Assembly: GCA_016710645.1 (NCBI GenBank)
Contig: JADJVI010000056.1
Coordinates: 1,388 to 65,387, forward strand
Reading direction: 5' to 3'
DNA length: 64,000 bases
Source: Actinomycetales bacterium
Lineage (GTDB): Bacteria > Actinomycetota > Actinomycetes > Actinomycetales > Dermatophilaceae
Made by a program: the position numbers and the translations under genes. Below, in pieces: positions 1-64,000 of the stretch. Position 1 is the stretch's first letter. Each line of letters begins with the position of its first letter. Under the pieces are notes generated by a model. It worked only from the letters and a program-made list of their open reading frames with translations, was not told the DNA's origin and searched no databases.

Positions 1-1504
1 CGGCATCAGGCCCACTGTCGGCGAGCTCAACCTCGACATCGGATGCCGACGCTTCAGCAGGGGCGTCCGAGCCGAGGATCGCCTCATCGACGTCAGCCAG
101 CTCGATCGGCTCGGCGCCCTCCGCCTCATCCGCCGAGAACCCCTCAGCCTCCGCGAACTCCGGCCCGACCTCGGCATCGCCACCGGCCACCGCAACGGCG
201 ACCGTTTCGGCTTCGCCGGCAGCCGGCACCGCCGGAACCTCGCCCTGCTCGGCGCCCAGCTCGGCCACGTCAACGATGTCGGCGACGGATGCGCTGCCGT
301 CGAGGTCGAGGTCAGTGCCTGACTCGCCGTCGACGACCACCTCGGAAACCCCGGCGGACTCTTCGGCCCACTCGACAGCAGCGGGGCTTTCGTCCGCCTC
401 CTCGGCGGCGGGAGCCACCTGCTCGGCTTCACCCTCGTCGGCCGAGGCGCCGTCGCCAGCGAGCCAGCCGGCACCTGCAGCAGCAGCAGCAGCCGTCGCG
501 GCGCCGCCGGCAACATAGCCAGCACCACCAAAGGTTCCGAATTCCCGCGTCCCGGACTGCAGCTCGCCTTCGATACGAGCCCGGGCAGCGGCGGCGGCCT
601 CGTCTGCGGGAGACGGGCGGGCCGGGCCTTCGGCCGGGGTCCAGACATCCTCAACTGCGGCCTGCACGCTCGGCGCCTCGGCCTCGGCTTCCGACTCGGT
701 CACCGACTCAGCAACATCGGCCGCAACGGCACCCTCGACATCGCCTGCCTCGCCTGCCTCGTCAGCGTCAACCTCGTCGCCAGCCGCAACGGCCGCGCCG
801 GCTGCGCCGTCATCCTCAACGGGAACCTCGACGTCCTGCGCAATGCCGGCGGCCTCCGCCGCGAGCGCCGCTTCCGGCACCACGTCATCAGCGCCGGAGA
901 GGGATTCGGCCACCAGTTCGTCGTCGACGTCCACCTCTTGGGCCAGGCCAGCCGCGTATGCCGCCTCCGCAGCCTCGGGAATCACACCGACGCCCGGGTC
1001 GACCACGAGGTCTTCGTCACTGGCGAACTCGTCCTCGGCCAGCGTCGGGACGACCCCCGCTTCCCCCGCGGCCCAACCGGATGCGGCCACGGGCTCAGAT
1101 GCCGACTCAGCCGGCGCAGTGTCGTCGCGATGACCGGTCAGCTTCGAGGCCGCCACCGCCGCGGCACCAGCCAAGCCACCAGCTGCAGCACCAAAGCCAC
1201 CGAGGCCCGCGTGACCAGACTCAGCCACCTCAACTGACGACTCTTCGGCGATATCGCCCACCGGCGGGATCGGACCCGGGTCGAACACGGAGGCGGCCGG
1301 CGGGAGGGGAGCGGACGGCATACCGGGGCCGCTGTCCCACGACGGAACCGGCGGCAGCGAGCCAGCGGCCTCCGACGGGCGCTGGAACTCGCTCGTGTCA
1401 GGCGGGGCCACCTCGCGCCGCCGTCGGCTGGCGCCCAACAGCAGCCAGAGACCGATCAGCAGCACGACCGCGACCAGCACCAACAACAGGACGTTTCTGG
1501 GCAT
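1..1504 (-). CDS. membrane-anchored acidic Ala/Glu/Asp/Val-rich low-complexity protein (N-terminus complete, C-terminus cut by window edge)
   Basis: Absent from the ORF track because it runs off the window. My reverse translation from the ATG at ~1504 gives MPRNVLLLVLVAVVLLIGLWLLLGASRRRR (one TM helix), then >450 aa of acidic low-complexity sequence. The listed 43..1524 + ORF is its Arg/Pro-rich antisense shadow. Confidence 0.55.
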   Translation of the reverse strand, partial: MPRNVLLLVLVAVVLLIGLWLLLGASRRRREVAPPDTSEFQRPSEAAGSLPPVPSWDSGPGMPSAPLPPAASVFDPGPIPPVGDIAEESSVEVAESGHAGLGGFGAAAGGLAGAAAVAASKLTGHRDDTAPAESASEPVAASGWAAGEAGVVPTLAEDEFASDEDLVVDPGVGVIPEAAEAAYAAGLAQEVDVDDELVAESLSGADDVVPEAALAAEAAGIAQDVEVPVEDDGAAGAAVAAGDEVDADEAGEAGDVEGAVAADVAESVTESEAEAEAPSVQAAVEDVWTPAEGPARPSPADEAAAAARARIEGELQSGTREFGTFGGAGYVAGGAATAAAAAAGAGWLAGDGASADEGEAEQVAPAAEEADESPAAVEWAEESAGVSEVVVDGESGTDLDLDGSASVADIVDVAELGAEQGEVPAVPAAGEAETVAVAVAGGDAEVGPEFAEAEGFSADEAEGAEPIELADVDEAILGSDAPAEASASDVEVELADSGPDA

Positions 1505-1587
1505 GTCCACTCCCTGTGAGGTGACGGTAAGCACGCAAGGGAAGCGCGCCCCGAGTGCAACATACCCGAGCTTGCGCGCCGAAAGCC

Positions 1588-1622
1588 GCGGCACGGCATA
1601 CCGGGCAGGTATGCCGTGCCGC
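1588..1622 (-). terminator. 15-bp perfect hairpin built from an inverted pair of the ACGGCATACC motif, downstream of the acyl-CoA ligase gene
   Basis: GCGGCACGGCATACC-gggca-GGTATGCCGTGCCGC read directly. It lies about 50 nt 3' of the stop at 1673. Confidence 0.5.
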
Positions 1623-1672
1623 AGACTCCGCGCGGAGGGTCAGTCGCGCCTCGCGAACCGCTCAGTGAGAGG

Positions 1673-3301
1673 TCAGTGGCCGAGCAATCCCAGTCGGGCG
1701 GCGGACTTCTCGCGCATTTCGATCTTGCGGACCTTGCCGGTGACCGTCATGGGGAATTCGTCGACGATCTCGACGTAACGCGGGATCTTGTAGTGCGCCA
1801 GCTTGCCGGTCGCAAAGGCGCGGATCGCCGGGGCGTCGACGGGCTGGGTGCCGGGCTTCATCCGGATCCAGGCGCAGAGCTCCTCGCCGTACTTCGGGTC
1901 GGGCACGCCGATGACCTGAGCGTCGAGGATGTCGGGGTGGGTGTAGAGGAATTCTTCGATCTCACGCGGGTAGATGTTTTCGCCGCCGCGGATGACCATG
2001 TCCTTGATCCGGCCGGTGATCTGGACGAAGCCGTCCTCGTCCATGACCGCGAGGTCACCGGTCATCATCCAGCCGTCGATGACGGATTCCTCGGTCTTGT
2101 CCGGCTGCATCCAGTAGCCGAGCATGACGGAGTAACCCTTAGTCGCGAATTCGCCGGACTGGCCGCGCGGGACGATTTCGCCGGTCGAGGGGTCGACGAT
2201 CTTGATCTCGATGTGCGGGCCGACCGGGCCGACGGTGAAGACCTTGCGGTCGAAGGTGTCGTCGGTGCGGGTCTGGGTCGACACCGGCGAGGTCTCGGTC
2301 ATGCCGTAGCAGATCGTCATCTCGTCGATGCCGGCGGCGATGACCTGCTTCATCAGTTCGGCCGGGCAGGGCGAGCCGGCCATGATGCCGGTGCGCACGG
2401 TCTCCAGCGCCGACACGTCGAACTGGCCGTCCTCGATGAGCTGCCACTCGGCGACGAACATCGTCGGCACGCCATAGAGGGAGGTGCACTTCTCGTCGCG
2501 GACTGCTTTGAGGGTGAGCGCCGGGTCGAAACCGGGTGCCGGGATGACCATGCAGGCCCCGTGCGAGGTGGCTGCGAGGTTGCCCATGACCATGCCGAAG
2601 CAGTGGTAGAAGGGCACCGGGATGCAGATCCGGTCCTGCTCGGTGTATTTGCACAGCTCGCCGACGAAGAAGCCGTTGTTGAGGATGTTGCGGTGGCTCA
2701 GCGTCGCTCCCTTGGGGAATCCCGTTGTGCCAGAGGTGTATTGGATGTTGATGGCGTCGTTGCGGTCCAGGCCGGCGGCGATCGCCTCCAGCTCCTCCTG
2801 GGTGACGCCCTCAGCGGCAGCCCACAGGTCGTCCCACGAGGCATCGCCAAGCAGCACCACCTGCTCGAGCGAGGGCACCTCGTCGCGGACCTCCTCGATC
2901 ATCGCCGCGTAGTTGCTCGTCTTGAACGACGGCGCCGACACGAGCATCTTGATGCCCGCCTGGTTGAGCACGTACTGCAGCTCGTGCGTCCGGTAGGCCG
3001 GGTTGATGTTGACGAGGATCGCGCCGATCTTGGCGGTGGCGTACTGCACGAGCGTCCACTCGCCGCAGTTCGGCGCCCAGATGCCGACCCGATCGCCCTT
3101 GACGATCCCCTTGCCGGCGAACCCGCGCGCGAGCACGTCGACGTCACGGGCCAACTCGGCATACGTCCAGCGTTTGCCGGCCACGACGTCGACCATCGCC
3201 TCGCGGTCCGGGAAGCGCGCGGCCGTCGCGTCGAGGTTGGCGCTGATGGTCTGCTCGATGAGCGGGGTGTCAGTGGGTCCGCTGGCGATGGACAACGACA
3301 T
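1673..3301 (-). CDS. AMP-dependent acyl-CoA synthetase/ligase (FadD-like)
   Basis: ORF 1673..3469. Adenylate-forming motif YTSGTTGFPKG and typical GEL/GWMMTGD/GRIKDMVIRGGENIYP blocks. Start placed at MSLSIASG (residue 57 of the track ORF), because the upstream 56 aa are Arg/Gly-rich and cover the motif hairpins. Confidence 0.9.
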   Translation of the reverse strand: MSLSIASGPTDTPLIEQTISANLDATAARFPDREAMVDVVAGKRWTYAELARDVDVLARGFAGKGIVKGDRVGIWAPNCGEWTLVQYATAKIGAILVNINPAYRTHELQYVLNQAGIKMLVSAPSFKTSNYAAMIEEVRDEVPSLEQVVLLGDASWDDLWAAAEGVTQEELEAIAAGLDRNDAINIQYTSGTTGFPKGATLSHRNILNNGFFVGELCKYTEQDRICIPVPFYHCFGMVMGNLAATSHGACMVIPAPGFDPALTLKAVRDEKCTSLYGVPTMFVAEWQLIEDGQFDVSALETVRTGIMAGSPCPAELMKQVIAAGIDEMTICYGMTETSPVSTQTRTDDTFDRKVFTVGPVGPHIEIKIVDPSTGEIVPRGQSGEFATKGYSVMLGYWMQPDKTEESVIDGWMMTGDLAVMDEDGFVQITGRIKDMVIRGGENIYPREIEEFLYTHPDILDAQVIGVPDPKYGEELCAWIRMKPGTQPVDAPAIRAFATGKLAHYKIPRYVEIVDEFPMTVTGKVRKIEMREKSAARLGLLGH

Positions 3302-3460
3302 GGTGCGGCCTTCCGGGGAGATGTACAGCGCTTGCGTGGGTAGCTCTAGTTCGCATCCCACCGCGTCGGGCAGCCTCCCGCAACCCGGCGATGGTCCCGG
3401 ATCTGCACAGGTATGCCGTCCGCCCACCCCGCGCGCCGAGCCGCTCCCCCTCTGACTGCC

Positions 3461-3494
3461 GCACGGCATACCCGATTGCTTTGGTATGCCGTGC
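3461..3494 (-). terminator. 12-bp hairpin from an inverted motif pair, 3' of the giant exoprotein gene; a third motif copy sits at ~3409-3420
   Basis: GCACGGCATACC-cgattgcttt-GGTATGCCGTGC, 13 nt after the stop at 3507. Confidence 0.5.
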
Positions 3495-3506: not shown

Positions 3507-6500
3507 TCATGCCTGCTTGCGCGACGCGAGTCGGATCCGCACGAAGATGGTCAGGGCCGCGAGAGCGGTGGCCAGAGCCAGCCCTGCCAGCGGAAGGAGC
3601 CACCACGGCATACCCGCTCGCACTGCCACGGGAAGGTCGATGCTCCGAATGCCAGCGCCGTCGAGGTACTCGATCTTGATCGTGTGCCTGCCGATCTCGA
3701 CATCGGGCGGGATGGTGACGCTCTGCGAGAGAGTGCCCTTGTCGTCGGTCCTGGCGTTCGCCAACACCCGCCGACTGCTGTTGAGGGTGATCTGCACGGG
3801 GACGGACGGCTGAAGCTGGGTTGCTCCGACGACGACCTGCTGACCGGGAGTCACAGTGCTCTCGCTGCCCACCTGAATGACTGGCGCACCGCCGATGGCC
3901 AGGACATTGATCCCCGAAGGCTCGGCCTGGTCCAGCGTCGTCGGGCCGGGTGTGGTGAGGTCCGGGTTGATGGAGCTCGACCACCCGTAAAGCGCGACCG
4001 TGATGGCGTTGTAGCCCTTGGCGTTGGGGTGCATGAACTGCTGGGTGAGCGAGGGGTAATCCGAGGTGTGGAGCTCAGCCGCCTGGGTGGCAAGCCAGGT
4101 GTCGAACGCGGAGGTCGACGCGCCCGACACCACGGTGACGCCACGGATATACGGCTCCGGATCGCAGGACGTGTGATTGGGCTGCACAGCATTGGCGGTT
4201 TGGTCCACGAAGTAGATGTGGCGCCCGCCCTTGGCTGCTTGAGTCACGGCAGCCGAGATGGCGGCGTTGAGCCGTTCGACGATCTGGTTGGCCAAGGTGA
4301 TTTCGGTCTGGCTGAATCCCGAACAGTTGCCGCGGACGTCTCTCGGCAAGACGGCGGGGTAGGCCAACACCAAGACAGGAGCCGACTTCTGTCGCTGTTT
4401 CAGCGACTCATCGTCGTTGATGATCGAGTAGATGGTTTGGTAGACGCGGCTCAGGCGGCCCAACTGGCCGGGCTGGCTCGGATCATTCAACTGAGAGATC
4501 TGCTCGAAAGCCCGCTCCCGGAACTCCGGAGTGCCGCACTCGCCCGGCTTGACGCACGCTTCCACGATGGAGGCGAAACCGACGTCGTTCCCGCCCAGCG
4601 TAAGGACGACGGCATCCGGCTTCTTGGCGAGGTGACGCAGTTGGGCGATCTGGGGCTGGTTCTCCTCCACGGTGGAGTTGGGTGCGTTCTGGCCCGACCA
4701 CATGTCCTCGATCACCGCACCTGAGCAGGCGATGAGGGTGCGACGGTCTTCGGGGAACTGCGGCAGCGTGTGGGTCTTGGTCGACTGGTGACACCGGTTG
4801 GACGCCACGTCGGTCCCCTTGACGTAGTCGCCGGCCCCTTCCCCAGCGGAGTACGAGTCGCCCATGACGACGACCCGGCCGCTCTCGGTGACCGTCTTCA
4901 GCCAGGACCCGGCAGCGTTCTTGAGGTTGTCGAGGGCGTTGACCGTGATGGTGCCCTTCGCGTCAACCGCCGACACGTCGTTACCCCACGTGGTCACGCG
5001 GTAATTGGCGGTGCCTCCGGTCAAGTCGACGCCGGCGGCCACCGTCCACGAGCGCGAGATGGTCTCGCCCGGTGCGATGTTGCCCAGCCGGAATCGCGGC
5101 GGCAGGACCGCGGGGAACATCGACTGCGAACCCTGGTCGGTGAAGGTCAGCCCGATCTGGGCGTCTTGGATCATGCGCGAGGACGGATTCGTCACCGAGC
5201 CGGTGATGGTGACCTGCTGGCCGACGATGGCCTGGCTGGGGGCTTGCGCTTTCACCTCGAGGTTGGGCACGCCCAATCTGTTGATATTGGCGTCCAGTTG
5301 AGCCGTGTCGTCGATCGGCACATAGGCGCCGCCGGTCGTGTTCGCGACGCACTGGAGTTCCTCCCGCCCGGCTGGTGACAGTTGGAAGCCCATCGCGTTG
5401 ATGGTGACGTCGAAGCCTTGCTTGGATACGTCGGCTGCCACCGAGCACGGCGGCGGCCCGCAGTTCGACTCTCCGTCGGAGACGAGCAGGATCGTGGCGC
5501 CGCGATACCCCTGCGCCATCAGTCGATCGACCACCGCACGCAGCGCCGGTCCGGTGGGCGTGTTGCCATCCGCCCCGAGCCCGTCAATGAGGGCGGTCAG
5601 CCGGCTACCGTCGCCAACCCGACCGACGGCGCCTCCGCCCGCGAAGTCCCCGGCGGCACACCCGTCGACCGAGTCTCCCCCTGGATACGTCCACAGTCCG
5701 ATCTCGGATGAGGAGGGCTGCCGCAGGACGAACTTCTCCAGCGCCGACTTGGCTCCCTCGAGTTTCACCGTGCCCGCGGCGTCGTGGTCGTTCATCGAAC
5801 CGGACAGGTCGAAGACCACGGCCAACGCGCCACCGCCGGGGGTGGAACTGCCCGTCCCGACTGGTCGGGTGCCTGTGGTGGCTTCGGCCGGTGTGGTCCG
5901 CGCGCGGTTCCACTGGGCCAGCACACTGTCGGCGATGCGGTCGAGGACTTGGGGGTTCTTGGTGCTGTTGGAGTGGCCGCACGAGTCGATCCACGCCGAG
6001 ACGAGGCTCATGATGGCCAACTGCAGTCCCGGCTCGCCGCTGAGGATCTGGTCGAGAACCGCGGAGTCGGACACCAGCTTGCCGAGAGCCGCGACTTCCA
6101 TACTGATGACGGCCCCCACCACCCCACCCCATTTCGCTCCCGACAACGCCGACCGCAGCATCGCCATCGTCTGATCGCTCGTCGTTCGACAGCTCACGTC
6201 CTTGACGCCGAGGCTGGCCTTGATGCCCTTCCGGTCGTACTCGGAGGAGAGGTAGCCGGTGGCCGAGGTGACGGGCACCACGCCATCGGTCCGGAGGTCG
6301 ATGTCGTAGAGCTTGATCCCGAAGAGGGTGCGACTGATGGTTGTCGTCGTCGAGATCATGGTGATCGGCCGCCCCGGTGCCGCTGGGGGTTTCGGGCAGC
6401 CGCTCGGCATCCAGTGCTTCTCGTCGTGACGGGCCAAGCACTTGGCTGCGTTCGACATGCGCGGAGGCAAGGTCTTGTTGGGTGACCAGAGTTCGTCCCA

Positions 6501-7130
6501 GGTTTCTTTGATCTCCGCGGGGAGGGTGTTGCCGAACGGTGAACCTTGGTAAGGAGTCCCCACGGTCACCAGCCCGCCGAAATGCTCCTCGGCAATAGGA
6601 GAGCGCGTGTATGCCGTGTCGCTCGCGAACAGCGCGGCCAGCCCGCCCATGGAGTGGGCGACGATATAGACCTTGCCATCGCCTCCCGCACGCTGATGCT
6701 GCTCTCCCACGGCGTTGACATAGCGCGCCAAGCAATCCGCGACCGTCGGTTCGGCGGCCCAGTCGGTGTTGGCGCTGGAGTAGTCGAAGGTGAGGTAGTC
6801 GAAATTGTCCGGGAGCCTCTGTTTGAGGCCTTGGATAGTGGTGTCCCATCCACTTGCCGTGCCAGTCCAACCGTGGACGAGCACGAGGGGTTGGCGATCT
6901 TTGGCGACCTGGGGTGCCGTGATCGTTCTGGGGCATTCGCCCGTCGGGCTCGTCTGCACGTCCGCCTGCACGTCCGCCTGCAAGTCCGCCTTCACATCTG
7001 CCTGGACGCTCGCCCGGACGCCCACCTGGACGTCGCCCCGGACGTCCGCCCGCGCGGCGCCCGCTCCGAGCAGCCCGAGGAGGACAACGAGCAGAACGCT
7101 CGCGGCCGAACGGACCGATTGAGGCAGCAT
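3507..7130 (-). CDS. secreted, C-terminally membrane-anchored multidomain protein: signal peptide, ADVQ repeats, alpha/beta-hydrolase lipase, vWA, CARDB/Ig-like, SGNH/GDSL hydrolase, Ig-like, TM anchor (1207 aa)
   Basis: ORF 3507..7763 trimmed to MLPQSVRSAASVLLVVLLGLLGAGAARA (residue 212). Lipase elbow YIVAHSMGG after LVLVHGWTG. vWA MIDAS VVFDLSGSMND ... LLVSDGESN. SGNH block I VVVMGDSYSAGEG and block III LTLGGNDVGF. C-terminal MPWWLLPLAGLALATALAALTIFVRIRLASRKQA. The ATG overlaps the upstream stop (TGATG). Confidence 0.8.
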   Translation of the reverse strand: MLPQSVRSAASVLLVVLLGLLGAGAARADVRGDVQVGVRASVQADVKADLQADVQADVQTSPTGECPRTITAPQVAKDRQPLVLVHGWTGTASGWDTTIQGLKQRLPDNFDYLTFDYSSANTDWAAEPTVADCLARYVNAVGEQHQRAGGDGKVYIVAHSMGGLAALFASDTAYTRSPIAEEHFGGLVTVGTPYQGSPFGNTLPAEIKETWDELWSPNKTLPPRMSNAAKCLARHDEKHWMPSGCPKPPAAPGRPITMISTTTTISRTLFGIKLYDIDLRTDGVVPVTSATGYLSSEYDRKGIKASLGVKDVSCRTTSDQTMAMLRSALSGAKWGGVVGAVISMEVAALGKLVSDSAVLDQILSGEPGLQLAIMSLVSAWIDSCGHSNSTKNPQVLDRIADSVLAQWNRARTTPAEATTGTRPVGTGSSTPGGGALAVVFDLSGSMNDHDAAGTVKLEGAKSALEKFVLRQPSSSEIGLWTYPGGDSVDGCAAGDFAGGGAVGRVGDGSRLTALIDGLGADGNTPTGPALRAVVDRLMAQGYRGATILLVSDGESNCGPPPCSVAADVSKQGFDVTINAMGFQLSPAGREELQCVANTTGGAYVPIDDTAQLDANINRLGVPNLEVKAQAPSQAIVGQQVTITGSVTNPSSRMIQDAQIGLTFTDQGSQSMFPAVLPPRFRLGNIAPGETISRSWTVAAGVDLTGGTANYRVTTWGNDVSAVDAKGTITVNALDNLKNAAGSWLKTVTESGRVVVMGDSYSAGEGAGDYVKGTDVASNRCHQSTKTHTLPQFPEDRRTLIACSGAVIEDMWSGQNAPNSTVEENQPQIAQLRHLAKKPDAVVLTLGGNDVGFASIVEACVKPGECGTPEFRERAFEQISQLNDPSQPGQLGRLSRVYQTIYSIINDDESLKQRQKSAPVLVLAYPAVLPRDVRGNCSGFSQTEITLANQIVERLNAAISAAVTQAAKGGRHIYFVDQTANAVQPNHTSCDPEPYIRGVTVVSGASTSAFDTWLATQAAELHTSDYPSLTQQFMHPNAKGYNAITVALYGWSSSINPDLTTPGPTTLDQAEPSGINVLAIGGAPVIQVGSESTVTPGQQVVVGATQLQPSVPVQITLNSSRRVLANARTDDKGTLSQSVTIPPDVEIGRHTIKIEYLDGAGIRSIDLPVAVRAGMPWWLLPLAGLALATALAALTIFVRIRLASRKQA

Positions 7131-8830: not shown

Positions 8831-10726
8831 TCAGATGATTTCCACCGGGGGGTATTCGGGCTGCCACATGCGGGTGTAGATGTCGCTCACCGGGTCGGTC
8901 AGTGGGCGGCGCGCGACGCCCTCCTCCGCGGCTGCCGCAGCGACGGCCAGGGCCACGTGGGCGGACACCGGGCGCAACTCGCTGATCCGCGGCAGCAGCG
9001 ACGCTCCCGGACGGTAGGTGTTGACCAGGGCCGCGAGCGCTTCGGCAGCGGCGGCGATCATCCCGTCGGTGACCCGGGTCGCCTGGCACGCGGCCACGCC
9101 CAAACCCAGGCCGGGGAAGATCAGCGCATTGTTGGCCTGCGCGATGACATGCCGCACCTCGCGGTGGTCCACCGGCTCGAACGGGCTCCCCGTCGCGATG
9201 AGGGCGCGCCCCTCGGTCCATTCGACGAGATCGGAGGGCAACGCCTCGGCCCGCGAGGTCGGGTTGGACAGCGGCATGATGATCGGCCGCTCGCAGTAGC
9301 GCGCCATCTCGGTGACGATCGCCTTGGTGAAGGCCCCTCCCGCGGTCGACGTGCCGATGAGGATGGTCGGTCGCACGTTGTGCACGACGTCGGCGAGGGT
9401 GATCCCGCCCCGCCCGGTCCCGTTGCCATTCCCAGCACCAGCACCAGCACCAGCACCAGCCCCAACGCCAACCCCATTCGGTATGCCGTTCGCGCCAGTT
9501 CCATTGGCCCCGTTGCCGTTTCCGGCGTGGCCGTTGCCGTTGGCGCCGTTCGCGCCCAGCATCCCGACCAGACCGCCGCTCACCCGCTCCCACCCGGCCA
9601 CCTCGTCACGGGTCCGCGCATAAGGCACCTGGAACTCCCGCAACGACGACATGTCGTCGACGAACAAGCCCTTGGACCCCATGACATAGAACTGCGCCTG
9701 CGCCGCCTCAGGCGACACACCCTCACGAATCAGCGTGTCCCGCAACAGATCTGCGATCCCGATGCCGGCCGTCCCACCGCCGTAGATGACGATGCGGTGG
9801 TCAGCCAACGGCATACCCGTGACGTTGACCCCAGCCAGCACGGCAGCCAAGGCAACCGCTGCCGTGCCCTGGATGTCGTCGTTGAAGGTGCAGTGCGTGT
9901 GCCGGTACTTCTCCAGCAGCCGGTGCGCGTTGTCGGCGCCGAAGTCCTCCCAGTGCAGCATCGCCGTCGGGAAGAGCCGCGACGCGGTCTGCACCACGTG
10001 GTCCAGGAACGCGTCATAGCGCTCCCCACGCACCCGCGCATGCCGCTCACCCAGATACAAGTCACTGTTGAGCAGGCCGAGGTTGTCGGTGCCCACGTCG
10101 ATGACGACGGGGATGACCCGCCGCGGATGCAGCCCGGCCGCCGCCGTGTAGACCGACAGCTTGCCGATCGCGATCTCGATGCCGCCGATGCCCTGATCGC
10201 CGATCCCGAGAATGCCCTCGGAGTCGGTGAAGACGATCAGGTCGACGTCGTCACGCGCCAAGCCATAGTCCAGCAGCGACTGCTCGACATCCTCCGGGCG
10301 GTCGATGGAGAGGAAAACGCCTCTGCTGCGGTTGTATTCGAGGCTGAACCGCTCGATCACCTCGCCGATCGTCGGCGTGTAGATGATCGGCATCATCTCT
10401 TCGATGTGGTCGGCCAGCAGCCGGTAGAACAGGATCTCGTTGCGGTCGCGCAGGTTGGCCAGGTAGTTGTGCTTCGCGAACGGCGTCTTGGCCGACTGGT
10501 ATTGCGCATAGACCCGCCGCACCTGGTTGCCCAGCCCGGTGACACCGCTCGGCATCAGCCCGACCAGCCCGAGATAGCGCCGCTCCTGCACCGTGAAGGC
10601 CGTCGCCCGGTTGGTCATCGGGTTGGCCAACACCGCCCGCCCGCGCGCGGTGATGCGGATCGGCGCATCCCGACGGGTGGTGTCGAGTTCGTAATCATGG
10701 TGGTACAACACGGAATTGGGCTCCAC
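8831..10726 (-). CDS. maeA: NAD(P)-dependent malic enzyme carrying a ~58-aa Gly/Asn/Ala low-complexity insertion
   Basis: Full-length similarity to malic enzymes (IIYTPTIGEV, VFTDSEGILGIGDQGIGG, FNDDIQGTAAV, YGGGTAGIGIA). The insertion is residues ~384-441. Confidence 0.9.
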   Translation of the reverse strand: MEPNSVLYHHDYELDTTRRDAPIRITARGRAVLANPMTNRATAFTVQERRYLGLVGLMPSGVTGLGNQVRRVYAQYQSAKTPFAKHNYLANLRDRNEILFYRLLADHIEEMMPIIYTPTIGEVIERFSLEYNRSRGVFLSIDRPEDVEQSLLDYGLARDDVDLIVFTDSEGILGIGDQGIGGIEIAIGKLSVYTAAAGLHPRRVIPVVIDVGTDNLGLLNSDLYLGERHARVRGERYDAFLDHVVQTASRLFPTAMLHWEDFGADNAHRLLEKYRHTHCTFNDDIQGTAAVALAAVLAGVNVTGMPLADHRIVIYGGGTAGIGIADLLRDTLIREGVSPEAAQAQFYVMGSKGLFVDDMSSLREFQVPYARTRDEVAGWERVSGGLVGMLGANGANGNGHAGNGNGANGTGANGIPNGVGVGAGAGAGAGAGNGNGTGRGGITLADVVHNVRPTILIGTSTAGGAFTKAIVTEMARYCERPIIMPLSNPTSRAEALPSDLVEWTEGRALIATGSPFEPVDHREVRHVIAQANNALIFPGLGLGVAACQATRVTDGMIAAAAEALAALVNTYRPGASLLPRISELRPVSAHVALAVAAAAAEEGVARRPLTDPVSDIYTRMWQPEYPPVEII

Positions 10727-17131: not shown

Positions 17132-17197
17132 AGGGCCACGCTAAAGGCTCCGGTATGCCGTGACGCTCCCCAACCCGCTCCCAAGCTCATCTCCCAG

Positions 17198-53693: not shown

Positions 53694-53802
53694 AGGTTTC
53701 CGCGAGGCGGGTATGCCGTCCCGCGCTCGCCGCGTCACGGGTTTGGCGCATTTCGCCACACTCACCAGAAAAACCCATCATGCGGCAGCTTTGCCCTTGC
53801 GA

Positions 53803-53832: not shown

Positions 53833-55525
53833 ATGACGACGCTCGCTCTCGACCCGCAACCACTCGGCGGTATGCCGTGTGGTGGTCGGTTGGGTGGCGC
53901 GTCGGAGGGGCCGTCGGTGGCGGGGGTTTCGACCACGGTGGTGCATGCGACCTGCGATCAGATCCTGGCCCGACTGTCGTCTCCTGAGGCCGGTGTGGTC
54001 GTGTCGAGCGTGGACGTGCAGGAAGTGGATCGGCTCGCTCGTCGGGTGGAGGCGGTGCGGTTGGCGTTGGTCGCTGCAGCTGATCGGCAGCAGGTGCATC
54101 GGCGGTGTGGGCATTCCTCGACGTCGGCGTGGGTGGCCAGCGCGACGCGTTCTGGGGGTGCTGCGGCGGCTCGGGATGTGGCATTGGCGACGGCGTTGGC
54201 TGATGGGTTGGACCGCACCCGGGTGGCGTTCGAGGCTGGTGAGGTCTCTCGCTCGAACGCGGGGATCATCGCCAGGACCATGGGCAAGTTGCCCGAGACG
54301 ACCACGGTGGTGGATCGGGAGCGGGTCGAGTCGGCGTTGGTGCGGGATGCTCGCCGGTTGGACCCGGGCCGGTTGGATCGGGCGGCGAAGCTGGCGTTGG
54401 CTGCGGCGGAGAAGTCGGCGGCCGAGGTGGCCGATCACCTTGAGCAACAACTGGTGGATGAGGAGCGTCGGGCCTACCGGTTGGCGACGGTGACCATGCA
54501 GGACCTGGGGGATGGCACGACGAAGTTGGCGGCGACGTTGCCGACGCCAGCCGCGAAGATGTTGGGCAAGGTGTTGCAGTCGATGACCGCGCCTCGGCGT
54601 GACCATCTGCGCAAGGCTGCCGAGAAGGCGTTGGCGGACGGGCAAGCCCCTGCCGGCTGCCTGGACGACGGCTCCGTGGCTGCTGACTTGTTGAGCGCCA
54701 CGGGCACGCACGAGCACCCGTCGTTCGGTGCCGGTTCGCATGGCACGTCTGGCACTGGTGCCCACCCGCAGTTCGGCGCCGGCGTGAGGGGCACGGCCGG
54801 CGCGAAGGGGCGCATGGCAGCCGACGGTCGGGCGCCGTCCGGCACAAGCGCGATGCCTGCCAGCGGCGCCAGCGGACACCGGATCGAGGGTCGGAACGCG
54901 GACTGGGCCGACATTGACTGGGCTCACCGTCGTGGCCGGGCGTTGACCGAGTTGATCGAGCACCTAGACACGGAGAAGCTGACCGGGAAGGTCGCCTCCA
55001 CCGTCATCATCACCATGACCGCTGAGCAAGTGATGGGCGCCGCGAAAGCCGCCAAACTCCAGCAGACCATCCACGAGGCGACCGGGACGCTGATCGACAT
55101 GGCTCCGAGTTCCGGGGCCGCGACCACCGACACCGGGGTGTTGATCTCCACGAGTGCCGCGCGGCGGATCGCCTGCAATGCCGGGATCCTGCCGGTCGTG
55201 TTGGGCGGACCCGGACACGTCCTGGACGTCGGCCGACAAGAACGGTTCTTCACCGAGCACCAACGGACAGCCCTGGCGACGATCTACGAAACCTGCGCGG
55301 CAGAAGACTGCGACCGACCCTACGCATGGTCCGAGTTGCATCACGAGGACCCGTGGTCCAAGGGCGGATTGACCGACCTCGACCGAGCCGATCCCGCTGT
55401 GCGGCTACCACCACCGCAAGATCCACGACCCCGCCTACCACCACGAGATCACCCGAGACGGAGACACGGACGGGCGAGGTCAGGGGCATGGGGCGAAGAG
55501 CGTCCACTTCCAGCTGCGCACCTAG
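53833..55525 (+). pseudogene. DUF222 + HNH endonuclease (13E12-repeat-like family), frameshifted inside the HNH motif
   Basis: ORF 53833..55629 reads ...ELHHEDPWSKGGLTDLDRA, then goes out of frame. Shifting one frame at ~55387-55390 gives IPLCGYHHRKIHDPAYHHEITRDG...VHFQLRT*, the canonical end of this family. Confidence 0.75.
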
Positions 55526-55614: not shown

Positions 55615-55866
55615 CCGGCTTCCGACTAGGCAGAACGTGCACCCCGACTCAAGTTCCGCCTAGCGGCGTGGTCCATGGCACGGCATACCTCGTCCCCTGC
55701 GGCGAGGTAGCGATAGGGGCTGCTACGCGACCCTGCTCACAGCCGAATTCGGCACCTCGCGGGGCACGCGGGCGAGGAACCAGCCGCCGGGCGGCGGCCA
55801 TTCGGCCGGAGCGGCCGAAAATAGCCCTCGACGTGGACCAGGGCGGCGTCGACGCCGAGCTCAGGC
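55611..55866. repeat. diverged (~80% by eye) direct copy of the 56880-57160 segment, including a dead copy of the reductase gene 3' end
   Basis: Shared strings CCGGCTTCCG(AC/GT)TAGGCAGAACGTGC and GGGCGGCGGCCATTCGGCCGGAGCGGCCG…GTAGCCCTCGACGTGGACCAGG. The two copies bracket the GNAT pseudogene. Confidence 0.65.
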
Positions 55867-56991: not shown

Positions 56992-57030
56992 CAGCCGGGG
57001 TATGCCGTGCGGCACGGCATACCCCGGCTG
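56992..57030 (-). terminator. near-perfect 39-bp palindrome from an inverted motif pair, 3' of the reductase gene
   Basis: CAGCCGGGGTATGCCGTGC-g-GCACGGCATACCCCGGCTG. Confidence 0.55.
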
Positions 57031-58123: not shown

Positions 58124-58343
58124 GGTCCCTATCTTCGTGGTCGAGGTTCGGCGGTTGAAGCCCTTCCCGCTGTGACGTGCGCAGACCCGCCATCGCGAGA
58201 CGCGAGCGGACCGGGCGGCACGGCATACGGGTCAATCGGGGTGTCAGTCGGGGTGTCAATCGGGTTGCGACACAACCGAATGTGCCGCGGCTACACAAGG
58301 GGCGAGGGGCCGTGAAACGGGTCACTCACCGGGGTGGAACAGA

Positions 58344-58389
58344 CCGAAGGGGTATGCCGGGCGGGTGAGACCGCGGCATACCCCTTCGG
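58344..58389 (-). terminator. 16-bp hairpin from an inverted motif pair, 3' of the diiron oxygenase gene
   Basis: CCGAAGGGGTATGCCG-14 nt-CGGCATACCCCTTCGG. Confidence 0.5.
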
Positions 58390-59628: not shown

Positions 59629-60045
59629 CTACTCGGTGCGACCGCGCAACAGCCGCCGCATGAGCTCGACGAACTGCTCCAGGTCGGGTCCCAGCCGCGC
59701 GAAGAACGCGGTCTCGACATCGTTCTCCCGCCCGTATGCCGCCGCGAGACGCTCGCCGGTGGCGGTGAGGCGCACGGTCACCAGTCGCCGGTCGGCCGAT
59801 TCGCGGTGTCGCTCGACCAGGCCGTCGCGTTCGAGGGTGTTGAGGACGCTCGACACGGCCGCTCGCGACAGGCCCGAGTAGCGGGCGATCTCCCGCGGCT
59901 CCATCTCACCAGCGACCCATACGCAAAACATCACCCGAAAACCTGCCATGCTCCACCCGGCCTCGCGGTGCACCTGGGATTCGAGCCGGTGGACCAACAT
60001 CGTCGACAGGCGCACGAGGTTGAAGGATGCGCGCAGGGCGAGCAA
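59629..60045 (-). CDS. MarR-family transcriptional regulator
   Basis: wHTH REIARYSGLSRAAVSSVLNTLERDGLVERHRESADRRLVTVRLT. Confidence 0.85.
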   Translation of the reverse strand: MLALRASFNLVRLSTMLVHRLESQVHREAGWSMAGFRVMFCVWVAGEMEPREIARYSGLSRAAVSSVLNTLERDGLVERHRESADRRLVTVRLTATGERLAAAYGRENDVETAFFARLGPDLEQFVELMRRLLRGRTE

Positions 60046-60295
60046 GTCTGCGTCAGGGTGGGTCGTGGCGACTTGCTGGGCTGCGGCGGACTCGAACCCG
60101 TCCGACGAGCCCCGGGCTGATCATCACAACTCGCATGATGTCACCTTGACGATCCCTGTCAGGGCTCACGTCCTGACTTGGGCTCGGACTGTCCTCGTTC
60201 CGCACGCATTCCGGTATGCCGTCAGGCCGGAGGTGGCGACCGGAGGCCGAGGCGAAGGCATGGAGAGGTCGAGAGTCGGGAGGCGGGAGGCGGGG

Positions 60296-61565: not shown

Positions 61566-61600
61566 CCGCCTGTATGCCGTGTGACACGGCATACAGGCGG
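61566..61600 (+). terminator. 17-bp-arm palindrome from an inverted (variant) motif pair
   Basis: CCGCCTGTATGCCGTGT-g-ACACGGCATACAGGCGG, 17 nt after the stop at 61549. Confidence 0.5.
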
Positions 61601-61658
61601 GGTCAAGGACCGCTCCGCCTTCCAGGAGCAAGCGCTTACCGGCAAGCAGGATCCGATC

Positions 61659-63944
61659 ATGAGCGCCCTGCAGATCACCGCCATTGCGCTGTGCTTCACC
61701 ATCCCGCTGTTGGGGTGGGCGTTGCTCTTCCGGCAGGCGTTCCGCTTCTATCGGCTGTTCCAGACCGGGGCACCCGACACGAGCCCGCGACCAGCCCACC
61801 ACGCGCGCACTGACGGTGCTGCTGCGAGTTCCTCGGGCACACCCGGATGAAGCAGCCAGTGGGTGTCGGTGGCGCACTGGTTCACCGCATTGGGGTTCCT
61901 ATCCTCTTCGCCACCCTGGTCAACGCGTTCTTCCAGCTCATCTGGGCTGACTTCCGGCTGCCGGTCGTCGGGCACTTCCCGCCCTTCGAGTGGCTCATCG
62001 AGTTGTTCGCGGTGACCGGGTTTATCGGCATCGTCTTCCTCATGCTGGTCCGCCAGAAGGAACACCCGCGCTCCTCCGAGGGTGACCGCGGCGCCGCCGC
62101 AGCCGATTCTTCGGATCGACGTGGTGGCAGGCCTATTACGTCGAGATCACCATCCTCGTCGTCATGGTGTGCATCCTGTCGTTGCGCACCAGGAGGCCGC
62201 GCTCATCGCGCGCATCGAGCCCGACACCAACATCGCCCTGCACTTCCCCGACCGGCTGGGCGCGTGGCATCTGGGGTGGCCTGGTCCGAGCAGTGGCTGC
62301 GCGAGTCGATCTGTCGTCGCGGCGACCAAGATCCTGGTGAGCTTCGCGTGGATGATCACGTCCCGCTCACTTCCGACGATGGGCGTGGCGTGGCACCGTT
62401 TCTCGCGTTCGTCAACATCTTCTTCAAGCGTCACGCCGACGGGCGCACCAGCCTCGGCGCGGGCAGCCGATGATGGTCGGCGGCGCGCCTATCGACCTCG
62501 AGCAGATCGAAGATCTCACGAGGACGCCGCCCTCGCGGGTGCAGGCCGAGCACTTCACCTGGAAGGGCTTGGCTCGACTTCACCACGTGCACTGCGCGTG
62601 GCCGCTGCCAGGCGCAGTGCCTGGCGTGGAACACCGACAAGCCGTCCTCACCCAAGCTGCTCGTCGTGACGCTGCGCGACTACGCCCACGCCAAGGCCCC
62701 TACCTCATGGCCACCGAGGGCGACCGCGCCGACCTGCCCGCGCACACCCTCAAACTCGCCGATGCGCCGCTGATCGGTGAGCCGACGGCATACGACGTCA
62801 GCCACCCGCTGACGGCATACGACGCCCTGGGCACTGACGGGGTCATCCACGAGACGCGCTCGGTCGTGCACGACGTGCAGCGCCTGCGTCGAGCAGTGCC
62901 CGGTCGACATCGAGCACGTCGACGCGATCGTCGACATGCGCCGCTATCAGAAACCTCATCGCCAGCGCTTTCCGCGTCGAGCTCGGCGGCCTGTTCAAGG
63001 ACCTTGAGAAGAACTCCAACCCCTGGGGCCATGCCCGGCGGATGCGCATGGACTGGGCCAAGGGCCTGGCGTTCGACGTGCCGGTCGTCGGCGACGACAT
63101 CGAGGACCTCGCCGGGAGGTCGACTACCTCTTCTGGGTCGGCTGCGCAGGCGCCTTTGAGGACCGCGCCAAGCGCACCTCCCGCGCGGTCGCCGAACTCC
63201 TGCACACCGCCGGGGTCACGTATGCCGTGCTCGGAGACGGCGAGGCCTGCACTGGTGACTCTGCGCGCCGGGCCGGCAACGAGTTCCTCTTCCAGATGCT
63301 CGCGCAGCAGAACGTCGAGGTGCTCAAGGAGGTCGGCGCGACCAAGATCGTCGTCACCTGTGCGCACTGCTTCAACACTCTCAAGAACGAATACCCGCAG
63401 CTGGGTGGCCACTACGAGGTGCTGCACCACACCCAGCTGCTCAACCGGTTGGATCCGAGAGGGCCGGCTCACCTGTGTCCCGCCCCGGCGAGTCCGGCGG
63501 CACTAAGGACGCCTCCACGGCCCCGACGGTCACCTATCACGACCCGTGTTACCTCGGCCGGCACAACCACGTTCACGCGCCGCGCGAGCTGCTCGGCGCC
63601 CTGCCCGGGGTCTCGCTGTCGGAGATGCCGCGACACGGCGAGAAGTCGTTCTGCTGCGGCGCAGGTGGCGCGCGGATGTGGATGGAGGAGCGCCTGGGCA
63701 CCTGAATCAACGTCAACCGGGCCACTGAGGCGGTCGGGACGGGAGCGGCCCGTATCGCGGTTGGTTGCCCATTCTGTAAGGTCGCGCTCAGCGACGGCGT
63801 GAACCAACGCTCGTCGAGGAGTCCAAGGTCGCCGAAGGTGCGGTCGAGGTCGTCGATGTCGCCCAGATGCTGCTCGCCGCGGTGCGCCGCGGCCAGGAGC
63901 CGGGTGCGGCGACGACCGGAAGCGCCAGCACCGGTTCCGGCTAG
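61659..63944 (+). pseudogene. membrane-bound (Fe-S)-binding oxidoreductase of the heterodisulfide-reductase-related / Rv0338c-like family, with >=10 frame disruptions and one in-frame TGA
   Basis: Conserved blocks are spread over all three + frames of track ORFs 60594, 61684, 61847, 62082, 62470, 63042, 63227 and 63475. Examples: [84 protein letters not shown]. The TGA at 63703-63705 replaces an expected Arg/Lys codon with the frame conserved on both sides. Confidence 0.7.
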
Positions 63945-64000
63945 GGACCCGTCGCGTCGGTTCGGGCCGAGACCTCGGACGAGGTGCCCAGGAGGGGGTC

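Follow-up and report, generated by a model that had tools for sequence, protein, structure and literature searches.

A hyper-abundant, uptake-sequence-like DNA motif in Dermatophilaceae DNA from an uncultured wastewater actinobacterium

A 64,000-nt stretch of DNA from an uncultured wastewater actinobacterium (hereafter the window), whose nearest relatives are Dermatophilaceae, carries a robust, uptake-sequence-like and apparently previously undescribed motif. Exact counting gave 33 copies of GGCATACC and 38 of GGTATGCC, 71 in the whole window, precisely as an initial annotation had counted by eye, and its example positions were all real to within about 3 nt. In 100 dinucleotide-preserving shuffles the expectation was 0.76 (sd 0.87, maximum 3), and Markov models of order 1-3 predicted 0.9-3.6; models of order 4 or more are unusable as a null, because their k-mer tables are dominated by the motif itself. 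The hyper-abundance is real under dinucleotide, Markov and codon-aware nulls, and stronger than first stated.

The better-defined core is CGGCATAC, with 102 copies in the window (50 + / 52 -, 1.2-4.3 expected) and the logo c-A-CGGCATAC-C; of these 102 copies, 74 have A at -1, 59 have C at -2 and 70 have C at +8, in line with the flanks proposed earlier. The supposed one-mismatch variants GGCATACG (n=21) and GGCATACA (n=9) do occur, but are merely this core with a non-C base at +8. Cores occur about once per 700 bases, evenly spaced, on both strands without polarity, and in genic as well as intergenic DNA, as the annotation had described.

Inside genes the motif is a DNA-level signal. There are 60 genic cores, against 4.3 expected (maximum 10) after synonymous-codon shuffling and 1.7 after codon-order shuffling, which bears out the earlier preference for a DNA-level over a protein-level origin. 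The rare codon TAT is used in 97% of the places where it completes the motif and 26% overall, GCA in 83% and 6.5%, respectively. Motif density is lower in the most codon-biased genes, and the genic copies are biased in reading frame. Read in sense as nCG-GCA-TAC (strand of the copy after each coordinate) are those in hypothetical genes (956..963 -, GGCGGCATACGC, strain-variable; 17686..17693 -, GGCGGCATACCT; 48257..48264 +, CACGGCATACGC), abhydrolase/GDSL (6609..6616 -, CACGGCATACAC), amidohydrolase (16083..16090 -, GACGGCATACCC), DUF480 (19341..19348 +, CACGGCATACCT), permease (20995..21002 +, GGCGGCATACCA; 21715..21722 +, AACGGCATACGC), His kinase (22989..22996 +, CACGGCATACGC), T7SS_signal (25070..25077 +, CACGGCATACGG), STK-methyltransferase (26586..26593 -, GACGGCATACCC), NUDIX (28411..28418 -, CGCGGCATACCG), SPFH (29535..29542 +, GGCGGCATACGA), PMT_2 (37324..37331 +, CACGGCATACCG; 38323..38330 +, CGCGGCATACCT; 38701..38708 +, CGCGGCATACAG), FolP-like (43021..43028 -, AACGGCATACCC; motif absent from L002/L024), ceramidase-like (44263..44270 -, GGCGGCATACCG; 44482..44489 -, CACGGCATACGT), DLH (44924..44931 -, CACGGCATACCG), ECF sigma (47493..47500 +, CACGGCATACCA), CHAT (49689..49696 +, GACGGCATACCG; 51168..51175 +, GACGGCATACCA), CysE (51862..51869 -, GGCGGCATACCG) and MarR (59734..59741 -, GGCGGCATACGG). 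Sense nnC-GGC-ATA-C is found in malic enzyme (9481..9488 -, AACGGCATACCG), STK-methyltransferase (26837..26844 -, CACGGCATACCC) and subtilase (46565..46572 +, AACGGCATACTC), and sense CGG-CAT-ACn in a hypothetical gene (29868..29875 +, CACGGCATACCG) and CHAT (50351..50358 +, ACCGGCATACCC).

Antisense copies read nGT-ATG-CCG in a strain-variable hypothetical gene (1316..1323 +, GACGGCATACCG), abhydrolase/GDSL (3606..3613 +, CACGGCATACCC), malic enzyme (9809..9816 +, AACGGCATACCC), TctC (13933..13940 +, TCCGGCATACCG), His kinase (35523..35530 -, GACGGCATACCC), PMT_2 (38791..38798 - and 38836..38843 -, both CCCGGCATACCG), FolP-like (42730..42737 +, GACGGCATACCG; motif absent from L002), ECF sigma (47436..47443 -, GACGGCATACCG; 47955..47962 -, ACCGGCATACCG) and the DUF222 ORF within its first 45 nt (53870..53877 -, CACGGCATACCG). 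They read nnG-TAT-GCC-G in acyl-CoA synthetase (3157..3164 +, CTCGGCATACGT; also present in L002), amidohydrolase (15728..15735 +, ACCGGCATACCG; 15854..15861 +, CCCGGCATACTC), DUF1345 (16711..16718 +, CGCGGCATACCG), abhydrolase (18500..18507 +, CACGGCATACCG), permease (21365..21372 -, GGCGGCATACGC), T7SS_signal (24765..24772 -, CACGGCATACCG), STK-methyltransferase (26291..26298 +, CACGGCATACGG), NUDIX (28473..28480 +, GCCGGCATACGG), a hypothetical gene (29777..29784 -, CTCGGCATACTC), PEPCK (32351..32358 -, GCCGGCATACAG), ceramidase-like (43875..43882 +, CACGGCATACCC), DLH (44986..44993 +, CTCGGCATACCC), subtilase (47195..47202 -, GCCGGCATACTC) and CHAT (49501..49508 -, ACCGGCATACGC; 50731..50738 -, CACGGCATACCT), and GTA-TGC-CGn in a hypothetical gene (30585..30592 -, CACGGCATACCG).

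Comparison of orthologous positions, as the annotation had proposed, speaks to the origin of these copies. Orthologues without the motif align gap-free with the genic copies, as L001, L016, L024 and L002 do at PEPCK 32351..32358, and we therefore conclude that point substitution, not insertion, made them. At a second PEPCK site (32933..32940 -, GACGGCATACAG), the antisense reading CTG-TAT-GCC-GTC is common to L001 and L016, where L002/L024 read CTC-TAC-GCC-GTC. L002 also lacks the motif at three copies in a frameshifted pseudogene (62786..62793 + and 62813..62820 +, both GACGGCATACGA; 63220..63227 -, CACGGCATACGT). Between related genomes the cores diverge 4-fold more slowly than their flanks, and motif positions are conserved. 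The motif is genome-wide and extends beyond the window: 801 kb of non-redundant related DNA from independent metagenomic contigs holds 1,096 CGGCATAC cores against 9.0 expected (122x). It is distributed in some Dermatophilaceae only, and lineage dialects differ at position -1.

The genome-wide pattern, abundant, on both strands and both genic and intergenic, is the one that DNA uptake sequences (DUS/USS) show in Neisseria and Haemophilus. All sequence-level hallmarks examined were found, which supports a DUS/USS signature: the motif is hyper-abundant and without polarity, biased in reading frame, derived by point substitution, conserved in position and evenly spaced; it forms hairpin pairs on the 3' side of genes, has lineage dialects and is less dense in the genes with the strongest codon bias. 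The same features in combination tell against the other readings: a REP/RAYT element (raised earlier as REP/BIME) and a Chi/KOPS-type signal are therefore rejected, and a MITE and a protein-level explanation are excluded. What defines an uptake sequence is that competent cells take it up preferentially via a specific receptor; the earlier DUS/USS interpretation thus holds for the signature, whereas uptake as the function is plausible and is advanced here tentatively, as a hypothesis. No competence genes were found in the accessible DNA. The annotation's guess at a high-GC actinobacterial source was correct, given the Dermatophilaceae relatives, and, as it had supposed, literature searches found no earlier description of such a motif in this phylum.

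Single intergenic copies lie between acyl-CoA synthetase(-) and abhydrolase/GDSL(-) (3411..3418 -, GACGGCATACCT), malic enzyme(-) and Usp(+) (10817..10824 -, GACGGCATACCG), DUF1345(-) and hypothetical(-) (17153..17160 -, CACGGCATACCG), DUF480(+) and permease(+) (19575..19582 -, AACGGCATACCT), permease(+) and His kinase(+) (22128..22135 -, GACGGCATACGC), STK-methyltransferase(-) and NUDIX(-) (27823..27830 +, GACGGCATACCC), hypothetical(+) and MarR-like(-) (30633..30640 +, CACGGCATACGT), tRNA-Arg(-) and PEPCK(+) (31735..31742 +, AACGGCATACCG; conserved in L001), PEPCK(+) and response regulator(+) (33970..33977 -, CACGGCATACCG; 34499..34506 +, CACGGCATACCT), GtrA(+)/tRNA-Ser(-) and LytR(+) (40012..40019 +, CACGGCATACCG), LytR(+) and Csp(-) (41824..41831 -, CACGGCATACAG), hypothetical(+) and DUF222(+) (53711..53718 -, GACGGCATACCC), DUF222(+) and GNAT(-) (55681..55688 +, CACGGCATACCT), Fer2 reductase(-) and hypothetical(-) (58221..58228 +, CACGGCATACGG), and MarR(-) and 3-dmu-9_3-mt(+) (60214..60221 -, GACGGCATACCG). 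Another, at the junction of response regulator(+) and His kinase(+), shares bases with the predicted start of the kinase (35454..35461 -, GACGGCATACCG), and one 28 nt 3' of PEPCK(+) lies within the loop that a local GAAGGGGGC/GCCCCCTTC hairpin forms (33864..33871 -, CACGGCATACGC). Two copies between CysK(-) and hypothetical(+) (53210..53217 -, CACGGCATACCG; 53261..53268 +, CACGGCATACCT) are loose partners, and their fold is no better than that of shuffles.

Closely spaced inverted pairs fold into stable hairpins, which lie at a median distance of 35 nt downstream of genes, in agreement with the pairing at gene ends noted earlier. Those in +- order lie 3' of acyl-CoA synthetase(-) (1594..1616, -35.6 kcal/mol), 16 nt 3' of the abhydrolase/GDSL(-) stop (3464..3491, -30.2 kcal/mol), within the 3' end of the amidohydrolase CDS, 57-72 nt before the stop (14919..14941, -19.9 kcal/mol), and 6 nt 3' of the permease(+) stop (22064..22085, -23.3 kcal/mol). 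In -+ order, a 26-bp perfect stem lies in the convergent Usp(+)/TctA(-) gap (11475..11509, -52 kcal/mol, both strands), and further pairs lie in the tRNA-Arg(-)/PEPCK(+) gap (31809..31842, -42.1 kcal/mol), 53 nt 3' of the CysK(-) stop (52033..52070, -33.5 kcal/mol), 49 nt 3' of the Fer2 reductase(-) stop (57000..57022, 20-bp stem, -41.3 kcal/mol), 71 nt 3' of a hypothetical(-) stop (58352..58381, -39.2 kcal/mol) and between 3-dmu-9_3-mt(+) and the frameshifted pseudogene(+) (61572..61594, -32.7 kcal/mol). Motif orientation also showed an unexpected short-range alternation.

The word examined here marks a clade of uncultured Dermatophilaceae (Actinomycetota) from wastewater: it is specific to this lineage and occurs throughout the genome. 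Exact counting reproduced the copy numbers that the initial annotation had obtained by eye, namely 33 copies of GGCATACC and 38 of GGTATGCC, and the example positions given there were right to about 3 nt. Against these 71 copies, dinucleotide-preserving shuffles of the window lead one to expect 0.76, with a maximum of 3. The sharper core is the 8-mer CGGCATAC, which occurs 102 times in 64 kb (1.6 per kb; 50 copies on the forward and 52 on the reverse strand), where Markov models of order 1-3 predict 1.2-4.3 copies. It is non-palindromic, as its reverse complement, GTATGCCG, is a different word. What had been described as one-mismatch variants proved to be the same core in which position +8 is not C, and genuine one-mismatch variants of the core are nearly missing in the window, with 0-9 copies each.

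As had been proposed, exact k-mer counts were compared with proper null models, and the enrichment survives Markov as well as codon-aware ones. We kept the Markov models of order 1-3, an order-3 model with the motif masked, and codon shuffles; models of order 4-6 were rejected, since the motif dominates their own k-mer tables, through which they approach the observed count. The word is also not restricted to the window: in 801 kb of non-redundant DNA that includes it, we found 1,096 cores versus 9.0 expected (122-fold), and the remaining top-ranked 8-mers of this sample all overlap the motif. The 24 one-mismatch variants together reach 577 copies versus 431 expected (1.3-fold), i.e. an excess of about 146 copies against 1,087 for the perfect core, and a few neighbours fall below expectation (CGGCAGAC at 0.4-fold and CGGCGTAC at 0.6-fold). 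A scan of the metagenome collection with the pattern CACGGCATACC-N(1-30)-GGTATGCCGTG returned at least 117 loci, most of which come from activated sludge and digesters; the matches listed span 914 kb and contain 1,228 cores (618 on the forward and 610 on the reverse strand; 1.34 per kb). Each of these loci was seeded on one motif pair, meaning two nearby inverted copies of the core, which inflates pair and intergenic counts, and pairs were therefore left out of the strand, dialect and logo analyses. Drawn from 718 genic copies and from 173 intergenic ones outside pairs, the logo reads c(-2) A(-1) CGGCATAC C(+8), with conservation ending at about 11 nt.

Within the window, 60 cores lie inside called genes and 42 outside, the calls having been made by a simple 3-periodic Markov caller that agrees with independent calls over the 21 kb common to both; taking the window and the larger sample together, the genic share of copies is 59-66%. 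Shuffling of synonymous codons, which preserves all proteins and the codon usage of each gene, yields 4.3 copies (maximum 10) in place of the 60 genic ones, and shuffling of codon order yields 1.7. Sense and antisense copies in genes stand at 31:29 in the window and at 306:355 in the larger sample. The favoured frames in the window are nCG-GCA-TAC in sense and nnG-TAT-GCC-G and nGT-ATG-CCG in antisense orientation, and two frames hold 71% of the genic copies. Across 623 CDS, TAT makes up 26% of tyrosine codons overall versus 97% (265 of 272) in the context G-TAY-GCCG, GCA makes up 6.5% of alanine codons overall versus 83% in CG-GCN-TAC, and 66% of all ATA codons sit in cores. Copies are uniform along gene length; the genic density is halved in the quartile of genes with the strongest codon bias (0.53-0.58 per kb versus 1.2-1.6 per kb; Spearman coefficient about -0.3). 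The initial annotation had taken the recurrent peptides of its reading-frame track for the trace of a DNA-level signal, and the intergenic density, the use of six frames and the override of synonymous codon choice all agree with that view; on the same three grounds an explanation at the protein level was rejected.

How the copies came about can be read from orthologous positions. As had been suggested as a check, genic copies were aligned with motif-less orthologues from related loci, namely those of a membrane-bioreactor MAG of the Dermatophilaceae (L001), of Intrasporangium zincisolvens (L002) and of two further relatives (L016 and L024). The alignments are free of gaps, which means that the copies were made in place by substitution and not inserted. 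The differences are often synonymous only, as in PEPCK, where the window has CTG-TAT-GCC-GTC and Intrasporangium CTC-TAC-GCC-GTC. Once present, copies are better conserved than their surroundings: core divergence is 0.027 versus 0.118 in the flanks for orthologous loci at 85-97% identity (268 cores) and 0.110 versus 0.238 for loci at 70-85% identity (319 cores), and the effect is equally strong for intergenic copies. Likewise, four strain variants show no difference inside about 30 cores, where about 3.8 would be expected. At about 80% identity, roughly 60% of the sites turn over.

The balanced orientation that had been noted by eye was borne out, with 37:38 among the unpaired copies of the window and 50:52 among all of them. 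The contigs are oriented arbitrarily and pooled counts would hide any replichore skew; strand was therefore tested contig by contig. Across 54 contigs, the mean major-strand fraction is 0.588, versus an expectation of 0.622 for a 50:50 and of 0.758 for a 75:25 distribution, and the heterogeneity between contigs amounts to a chi2 of 25.4 on 54 df. In length and abundance class the word resembles Chi and KOPS, and like these, AIMS and the TRS of clt loci (words read by RecBCD/AddAB, FtsK or TraB), it is an asymmetric word over-represented on chromosomes, the known ones being 5-8 bp long. Those words are, however, polar or clustered on plasmids and 10-100 times rarer, whereas the present motif is unskewed and dispersed. 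As no skew appears in the 64-kb window or in any of the 54 contigs, signals of the Chi, KOPS and AIMS type are excluded, and we attach practically no weight to a polar chromosome signal of whatever kind, be it a recombination hotspot, a segregation signal or a primase site.

Copies are spaced more evenly than a hard-core random process would place them (CV 0.725 versus 0.825 +- 0.030). Moreover, neighbouring copies tend to alternate in orientation. In the window and the metagenomic loci collected by motif pair (L207-L323), 311 consecutive unpaired copies are in opposite and 171 in the same orientation (p = 2e-10), and the share of opposite neighbours is 68-74% at distances below 600 nt and declines at larger ones, examples of alternation being the copies at 47436/47493 and 53210/53261 of the window. 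The frame preferences of genic copies do not account for this alternation. It hints at the recognition of paired sites, and it would also suit a cytoplasmic DNA-binding protein.

One could imagine that the motif is the dense site of an abundant protein of this kind, which would structure the nucleoid, organise the chromosome or mark the DNA as self in a defence system, each site bringing a small benefit. Alternation below 600 nt would suit a protein that engages two inverted sites as a dimer or by looping, and recognition is independent of strand and transcription. The roughly 4-fold better conservation of cores over flanks, intergenic copies included, the evener-than-random spacing and the override of codon preference could equally result from a per-site benefit of a bound protein. 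However, the drop in density in the most codon-biased genes, together with the extensive turnover of sites, suggests that density matters more than position. Close relatives also manage without the motif, no candidate protein was found, and we know of no nucleoid protein with a strict site of 8-11 bp at about 1.3 per kb. From our point of view, a protein-binding site is thus a possible but rather doubtful explanation.

A further way in which a word could accumulate by substitution is a sequence-specific bias of repair or gene conversion, VSP-like and linked to a methyltransferase, as in proposals made for the cyanobacterial word HIP1. Near-cognate sequences would then be converted in the cell, with no import of DNA. 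The very sharp core with little halo, the depletion of CGGCAGAC and CGGCGTAC, the origin of copies by point substitution and the overridden codon preference would all be in line with such a bias. Yet for a 122-fold enrichment of an asymmetric 8-mer, all eight positions would have to be corrected; most one-mismatch neighbours are undepleted, and both the even spacing and the alternation of orientation are left unexplained. The VSP effects known to us are less than 2-fold and concern words of 4-5 nt. We therefore consider a repair bias unlikely.

Where two copies lie close together in inverted orientation, they can form hairpins. For the ten tight inverted pairs of the window, folding energies range from -20 to -52 kcal/mol and z-scores from -3 to -12; their stems often reach past the motif, with loops and extensions that all differ. 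The larger sample of pair-seeded loci contains 151 pairs within 60 nt, at densities of 1.77 per kb in convergent spacers, 0.97 per kb in tandem spacers, 0.36 per kb in divergent spacers and 0.08 per kb in genes. Inverted pairing at gene ends, which had been pointed out before, is confirmed: non-genic pairs lie at a median of 35 nt from the nearest gene 3' end. The pairs are hairpins without T-tails, and T-tailed terminators show no excess over shuffles in positions 1-20 kb of the window. Unpaired copies are distributed nearly uniformly, at 0.92 per kb in genes and 1.2-1.5 per kb in spacers of all types. This argues against a role as promoter or operator element, and a transcription-factor site was rejected because unpaired copies are no denser in divergent spacers. 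Two arrangements of pairs may be mentioned in addition. One motif hairpin (window 14919-14941, -19.9 kcal/mol) lies within the coding sequence of an amidohydrolase, 57-72 nt ahead of its stop codon. In L001, three tandem units of about 65 bp are found directly downstream of PEPCK (11900-12060), each of which contains a divergent motif pair with G-type and C-type flanks.

The stability of these pairs and their position just past gene ends raise the question whether the motif is mainly a building block of intrinsic-terminator-like hairpins, the other copies being by-products. We regard this as very improbable, as about 80-85% of the copies are unpaired, two thirds are genic (at about 0.9 per kb), the hairpins have no T-tails and the override of codon choice would find no explanation. 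Even less credence can be given to REP/BIME-like elements spread by a RAYT transposase, or to MITEs. The intergenic inverted pairs do look superficially like REP hairpins, and both are hairpin-forming repeats near gene ends. REPs, however, are imperfect palindromes of 20-40 nt that are extragenic and moved as units, whereas the conserved unit of the motif is about 11 nt long and non-palindromic, two thirds of its copies are genic and they differ from their orthologues by gap-free substitutions. In addition, the spacers and stem extensions of the pairs all differ, and the search for a Y1/HuH transposase, which covered the window and a partial sample of related contigs, found none.

Strains of the species differ from each other in a clustered manner. 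Between window positions 1544-23040 and the corresponding loci of other strains or assemblies (L081-L086), the index of dispersion of differences is 6-25, and identical stretches of more than 7 kb are broken by tracts of 0.5-1.5 kb at 3-10% divergence, within which the cores are intact. Such clustering is the usual footprint of imports by homologous recombination and indicates that these are frequent in the wastewater population. The left end of the window (1-1673) is strain-variable as well: the alignment with four other assemblies of the species breaks off at 1673, and L082 (21357-21497) encodes here a 671-aa TIR_2-domain protein in place of the 500-aa ORF of the window, which has no Pfam match. 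Motif copies occur in this variable end at normal density. The motif-poorest stretch of the window, 3605-9480, has one copy in 5.9 kb versus about 8 expected. It spans a 1,208-aa abhydrolase/GDSL protein, a small ORF and a PASTA-domain protein, has a slightly lower G+C content (0.66) and holds several strain-divergent tracts.

Recombination tracts in the population would also be compatible with a word read by a double-stranded DNA translocase of the FtsK/SpoIIIE/TraB type, in which case the transfer bias would stem from conjugative mobilisation of the chromosome and not from transformation. KOPS, SRS and TRS are asymmetric words of 8 bp, exactly the length of the present core, and conjugation of double-stranded DNA by TraB is a speciality of the actinomycetes. 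The TRS known from the clt loci of Streptomyces, however, are clustered direct repeats beside traB in plasmids or AICEs, whereas the copies of the motif are dispersed and alternate in orientation. The import tracts are also short, at 0.5-1.5 kb, and no TraB gene was found in the window or in the partial sample of related contigs, so that we consider a translocase word quite improbable.

Among 80 actinobacterial PEPCK loci, four stand out, including L001 (32 cores in 21.8 kb), L016 (7 cores) and L024 (4 cores). The remaining loci have 0-1 cores each, save two low-GC loci with 2 and 4. Density is high in the lineage of the window and in L001 and low in L016 and L024, and 77 other actinobacterial loci show no such enrichment. 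Distribution is patchy even in the family, as I. zincisolvens is motif-free though it is as near by PEPCK as L001. The base at position -1 varies with lineage, being A in the window (74 of 102 copies) and G in L001 (19 of 32), and it is heterogeneous between contigs (chi2 = 165, df 100, p = 5e-5); C-type contigs may exist too. In L024, a locus of an Intrasporangium sp. MAG, the core is rare (four copies in 11.7 kb, at 1767, 6809, 9555 and 9578), and all of its copies have the longer upstream flank GAGCyCAG-CGGCATAC, which could represent an older or different dialect of the same word. The stringent pair pattern had no match in 2.9 million viral contigs, and a viral scan with a core-only pair pattern was set aside as uninformative, since its 120 matches were chance matches, none of them motif-dense. 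A DUF222 gene of the window (53833-55629, forward strand) contains a single copy, right at the 5' end, and its other 1.75 kb are free of the motif; we take the protein to be of the HNH/13E12-type family typical of actinobacterial selfish elements. A further copy lies at 55681, just 3' of this gene.

Biased uptake followed by homologous replacement, and opposed by coding constraint, is to our knowledge the sole mechanism that gives such a pattern. The motif displays the sequence-level hallmarks of the uptake sequences of Neisseriaceae (DUS) and Pasteurellaceae (USS), namely abundance, strand symmetry, frame bias, permissive coding positions, pairs at gene ends, dialects and mutational origin, as compiled for comparison from a recent study (bioRxiv 10.1101/2025.10.24.684340). 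Since these hallmarks are present, the only known mechanism fits and natural transformation exists in the order, we prefer a sequence that confers specificity on DNA uptake or transfer as the best explanation of the motif, with a confidence that stays a little short of even.

The likeness extends to details. DUS are 10-12-mers, e.g. AT-GCCGTCTGAA, that are read by the minor pilin ComP, and the motif resembles them in its density of about 1 per kb, its presence in both orientations and in genes as well as between them, its frame bias, its inverted-pair hairpins 3' of genes, its origin by point mutation, its positional conservation and its family-internal dialects round an invariant core. It differs from them in sequence and phylum, in a patchier distribution within the family and in a sharper core, and a ComP-type pilin would not be expected in a Gram-positive organism with no outer membrane. 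We know of no description of a short-range alternation of orientation for DUS. With USS, which consist of a 9-bp core (AAGTGCGGT) and flanks, the motif shares a hyper-abundant asymmetric core with weak flanks, a genic share of about two thirds, favoured frames, a preference for less constrained genes and positions, terminator-like pairs and a spacing evener than random, the last of which is known for USS. It is again unrelated in sequence and taxon, and its one-mismatch halo is much weaker. As CGGCATAC is dissimilar to both GCCGTCTGAA and AAGTGCGGT, the motif is an analogue of these elements and not a member by descent. On sequence grounds, it is a counterpart of DUS and USS in a new phylum, with a hypothetical function in uptake.

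Among the observations that count against uptake are the patchy distribution in the family, the weak one-mismatch halo, given that the halo of the Haemophilus influenzae USS is much stronger, and the alternation of orientation, which lies outside a simple uptake model. Another comparable word is HIP1 (GCGATCGC), a cyanobacterial 8-mer that reaches up to about 1 copy per kb in genes and spacers, is made by substitution and is not known to be tied to uptake specificity. HIP1, however, is a perfect palindrome that overlaps methylation sites, whereas the motif is asymmetric and palindromic only as pairs.

Whatever its nature, the process behind the motif reads double-stranded DNA regardless of strand, gene and frame, and creates and maintains the motif site by site. 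If the motif is indeed an uptake or transfer sequence, a DNA-binding part of an import (or transfer) machine would, as for DUS and USS, favour fragments that bear the word. As imported fragments would replace their homologues by recombination, word-creating mutations would spread and word-destroying ones would be lost, so that the copies would be maintained by molecular drive and probably not by a benefit at each site. Uptake sequences are a textbook case of such drive shaping genomes. Purifying selection on proteins and codon usage would restrict where copies can settle. Chance pairs of close inverted copies 3' of genes would yield stable hairpins, which may have been kept or co-opted as terminator or stabiliser structures and might terminate transcription. 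The putative reader of the motif would be the uptake or transfer machine itself.

Pfam scans of the called genes of the window, and of the ORFs in stretches in which the caller had placed none, found no competence, pilus, RAYT or TraB genes. A crude search through about 800 kb from parts of several genomes, by way of 860 predicted proteins and six-frame translations, likewise returned no com, pilus, receptor, RAYT or TraB genes; its leads were false ones (a multicopper oxidase, a transglutaminase-like protein, UvrA, ABC ATPases, a cytochrome oxidase, ArgJ and an EccC-type ATPase), and the one ORF of this sample that resembles FtsK is a T7SS ATPase of the FHA-EccC type. Proteins with a ComEC domain occur in about 89% of Actinobacteria, a frequency at which their presence does not discriminate. 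We know of no report of uptake specificity for Micrococcus luteus. In this member of the same order, natural transformation proceeds via Flp/Tad pili and ComEA/ComEC (PMC4322843, PMC8467076). Literature searches found nothing on the motif string, nor on uptake sequences or hyper-abundant oligomers in Actinobacteria.

With slightly more reserve, one could go further and propose that the motif is the first uptake or transfer word outside the Proteobacteria, and that these Dermatophilaceae perform sequence-selective transformation with a new receptor, perhaps of the Flp/Tad-type pilus, and with dialects of their own, independently of DUS and USS. Uptake sequences are known to us from two proteobacterial families only, and an independent Gram-positive example would make the phenomenon a general one. 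It would further point to a new kind of DNA receptor, and it would imply that bacteria abundant in wastewater treatment often exchange genes in a self-selective way. The word could be of use as a lineage barcode for contig binning, for flagging foreign DNA and possibly as an aid in the transformation of uncultured or recalcitrant Actinobacteria. If the motif does not serve uptake, it would join HIP1 as an unexplained word, namely a strictly maintained 8-mer that, by extrapolation from its density, takes precedence over codon usage at about 4,000-5,000 sites per genome.

The surroundings of the motif are those of an ordinary chromosome. The window has a G+C content of 68.9% and its genes encode, among others, PEPCK, malic enzyme, a TctABC transporter, CysE/CysK and two-component systems, as well as three tRNAs, which were the only hits of Rfam and tRNA scans; the motif belongs to no known RNA family. 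PEPCK is 81% identical to that of L001 and 72% identical to that of I. zincisolvens. The same DNA recurs at 99-99.9% identity in assemblies from JGI, ENA and NCBI, among which is a 3.41-Mb MAG contig (GCA_963851545.1), and for the one window protein that was looked up, 113 blocks of the metagenome collection contain an entry. Because the same loci and copies are present in these independent assemblies, an assembly artefact was rejected.

Several genes of the window deserve a brief mention. A tRNA-Ser(GCT) on the reverse strand (39888-39976) overlaps about 70 nt of the 3' end of a GtrA-family ORF (39385-39957, forward strand), whose end is probably mis-predicted. At 26250-27719 (reverse strand), a 489-aa protein fuses a Ser/Thr protein kinase domain with a SAM-dependent methyltransferase domain. 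An apparent operon at 45669-51301 (forward strand) comprises a subtilase (S8), an ECF-type sigma factor, a small ORF and a 909-aa CHAT-domain protein, and could be a regulated protease or a caspase-like conflict module. Finally, the region 61826-63893 (forward strand) is homologous to a single 913-aa ORF of I. zincisolvens (L002, 19150-21891; CCG-domain Fe-S oxidoreductase-like) and is recovered by tblastn in no fewer than six segments (frames 2, 1, 3, 2, 1 and 3), which makes it either a pseudogene or a locally poor piece of assembly; this split ORF retains three motif copies, at 62786, 62813 and 63220.
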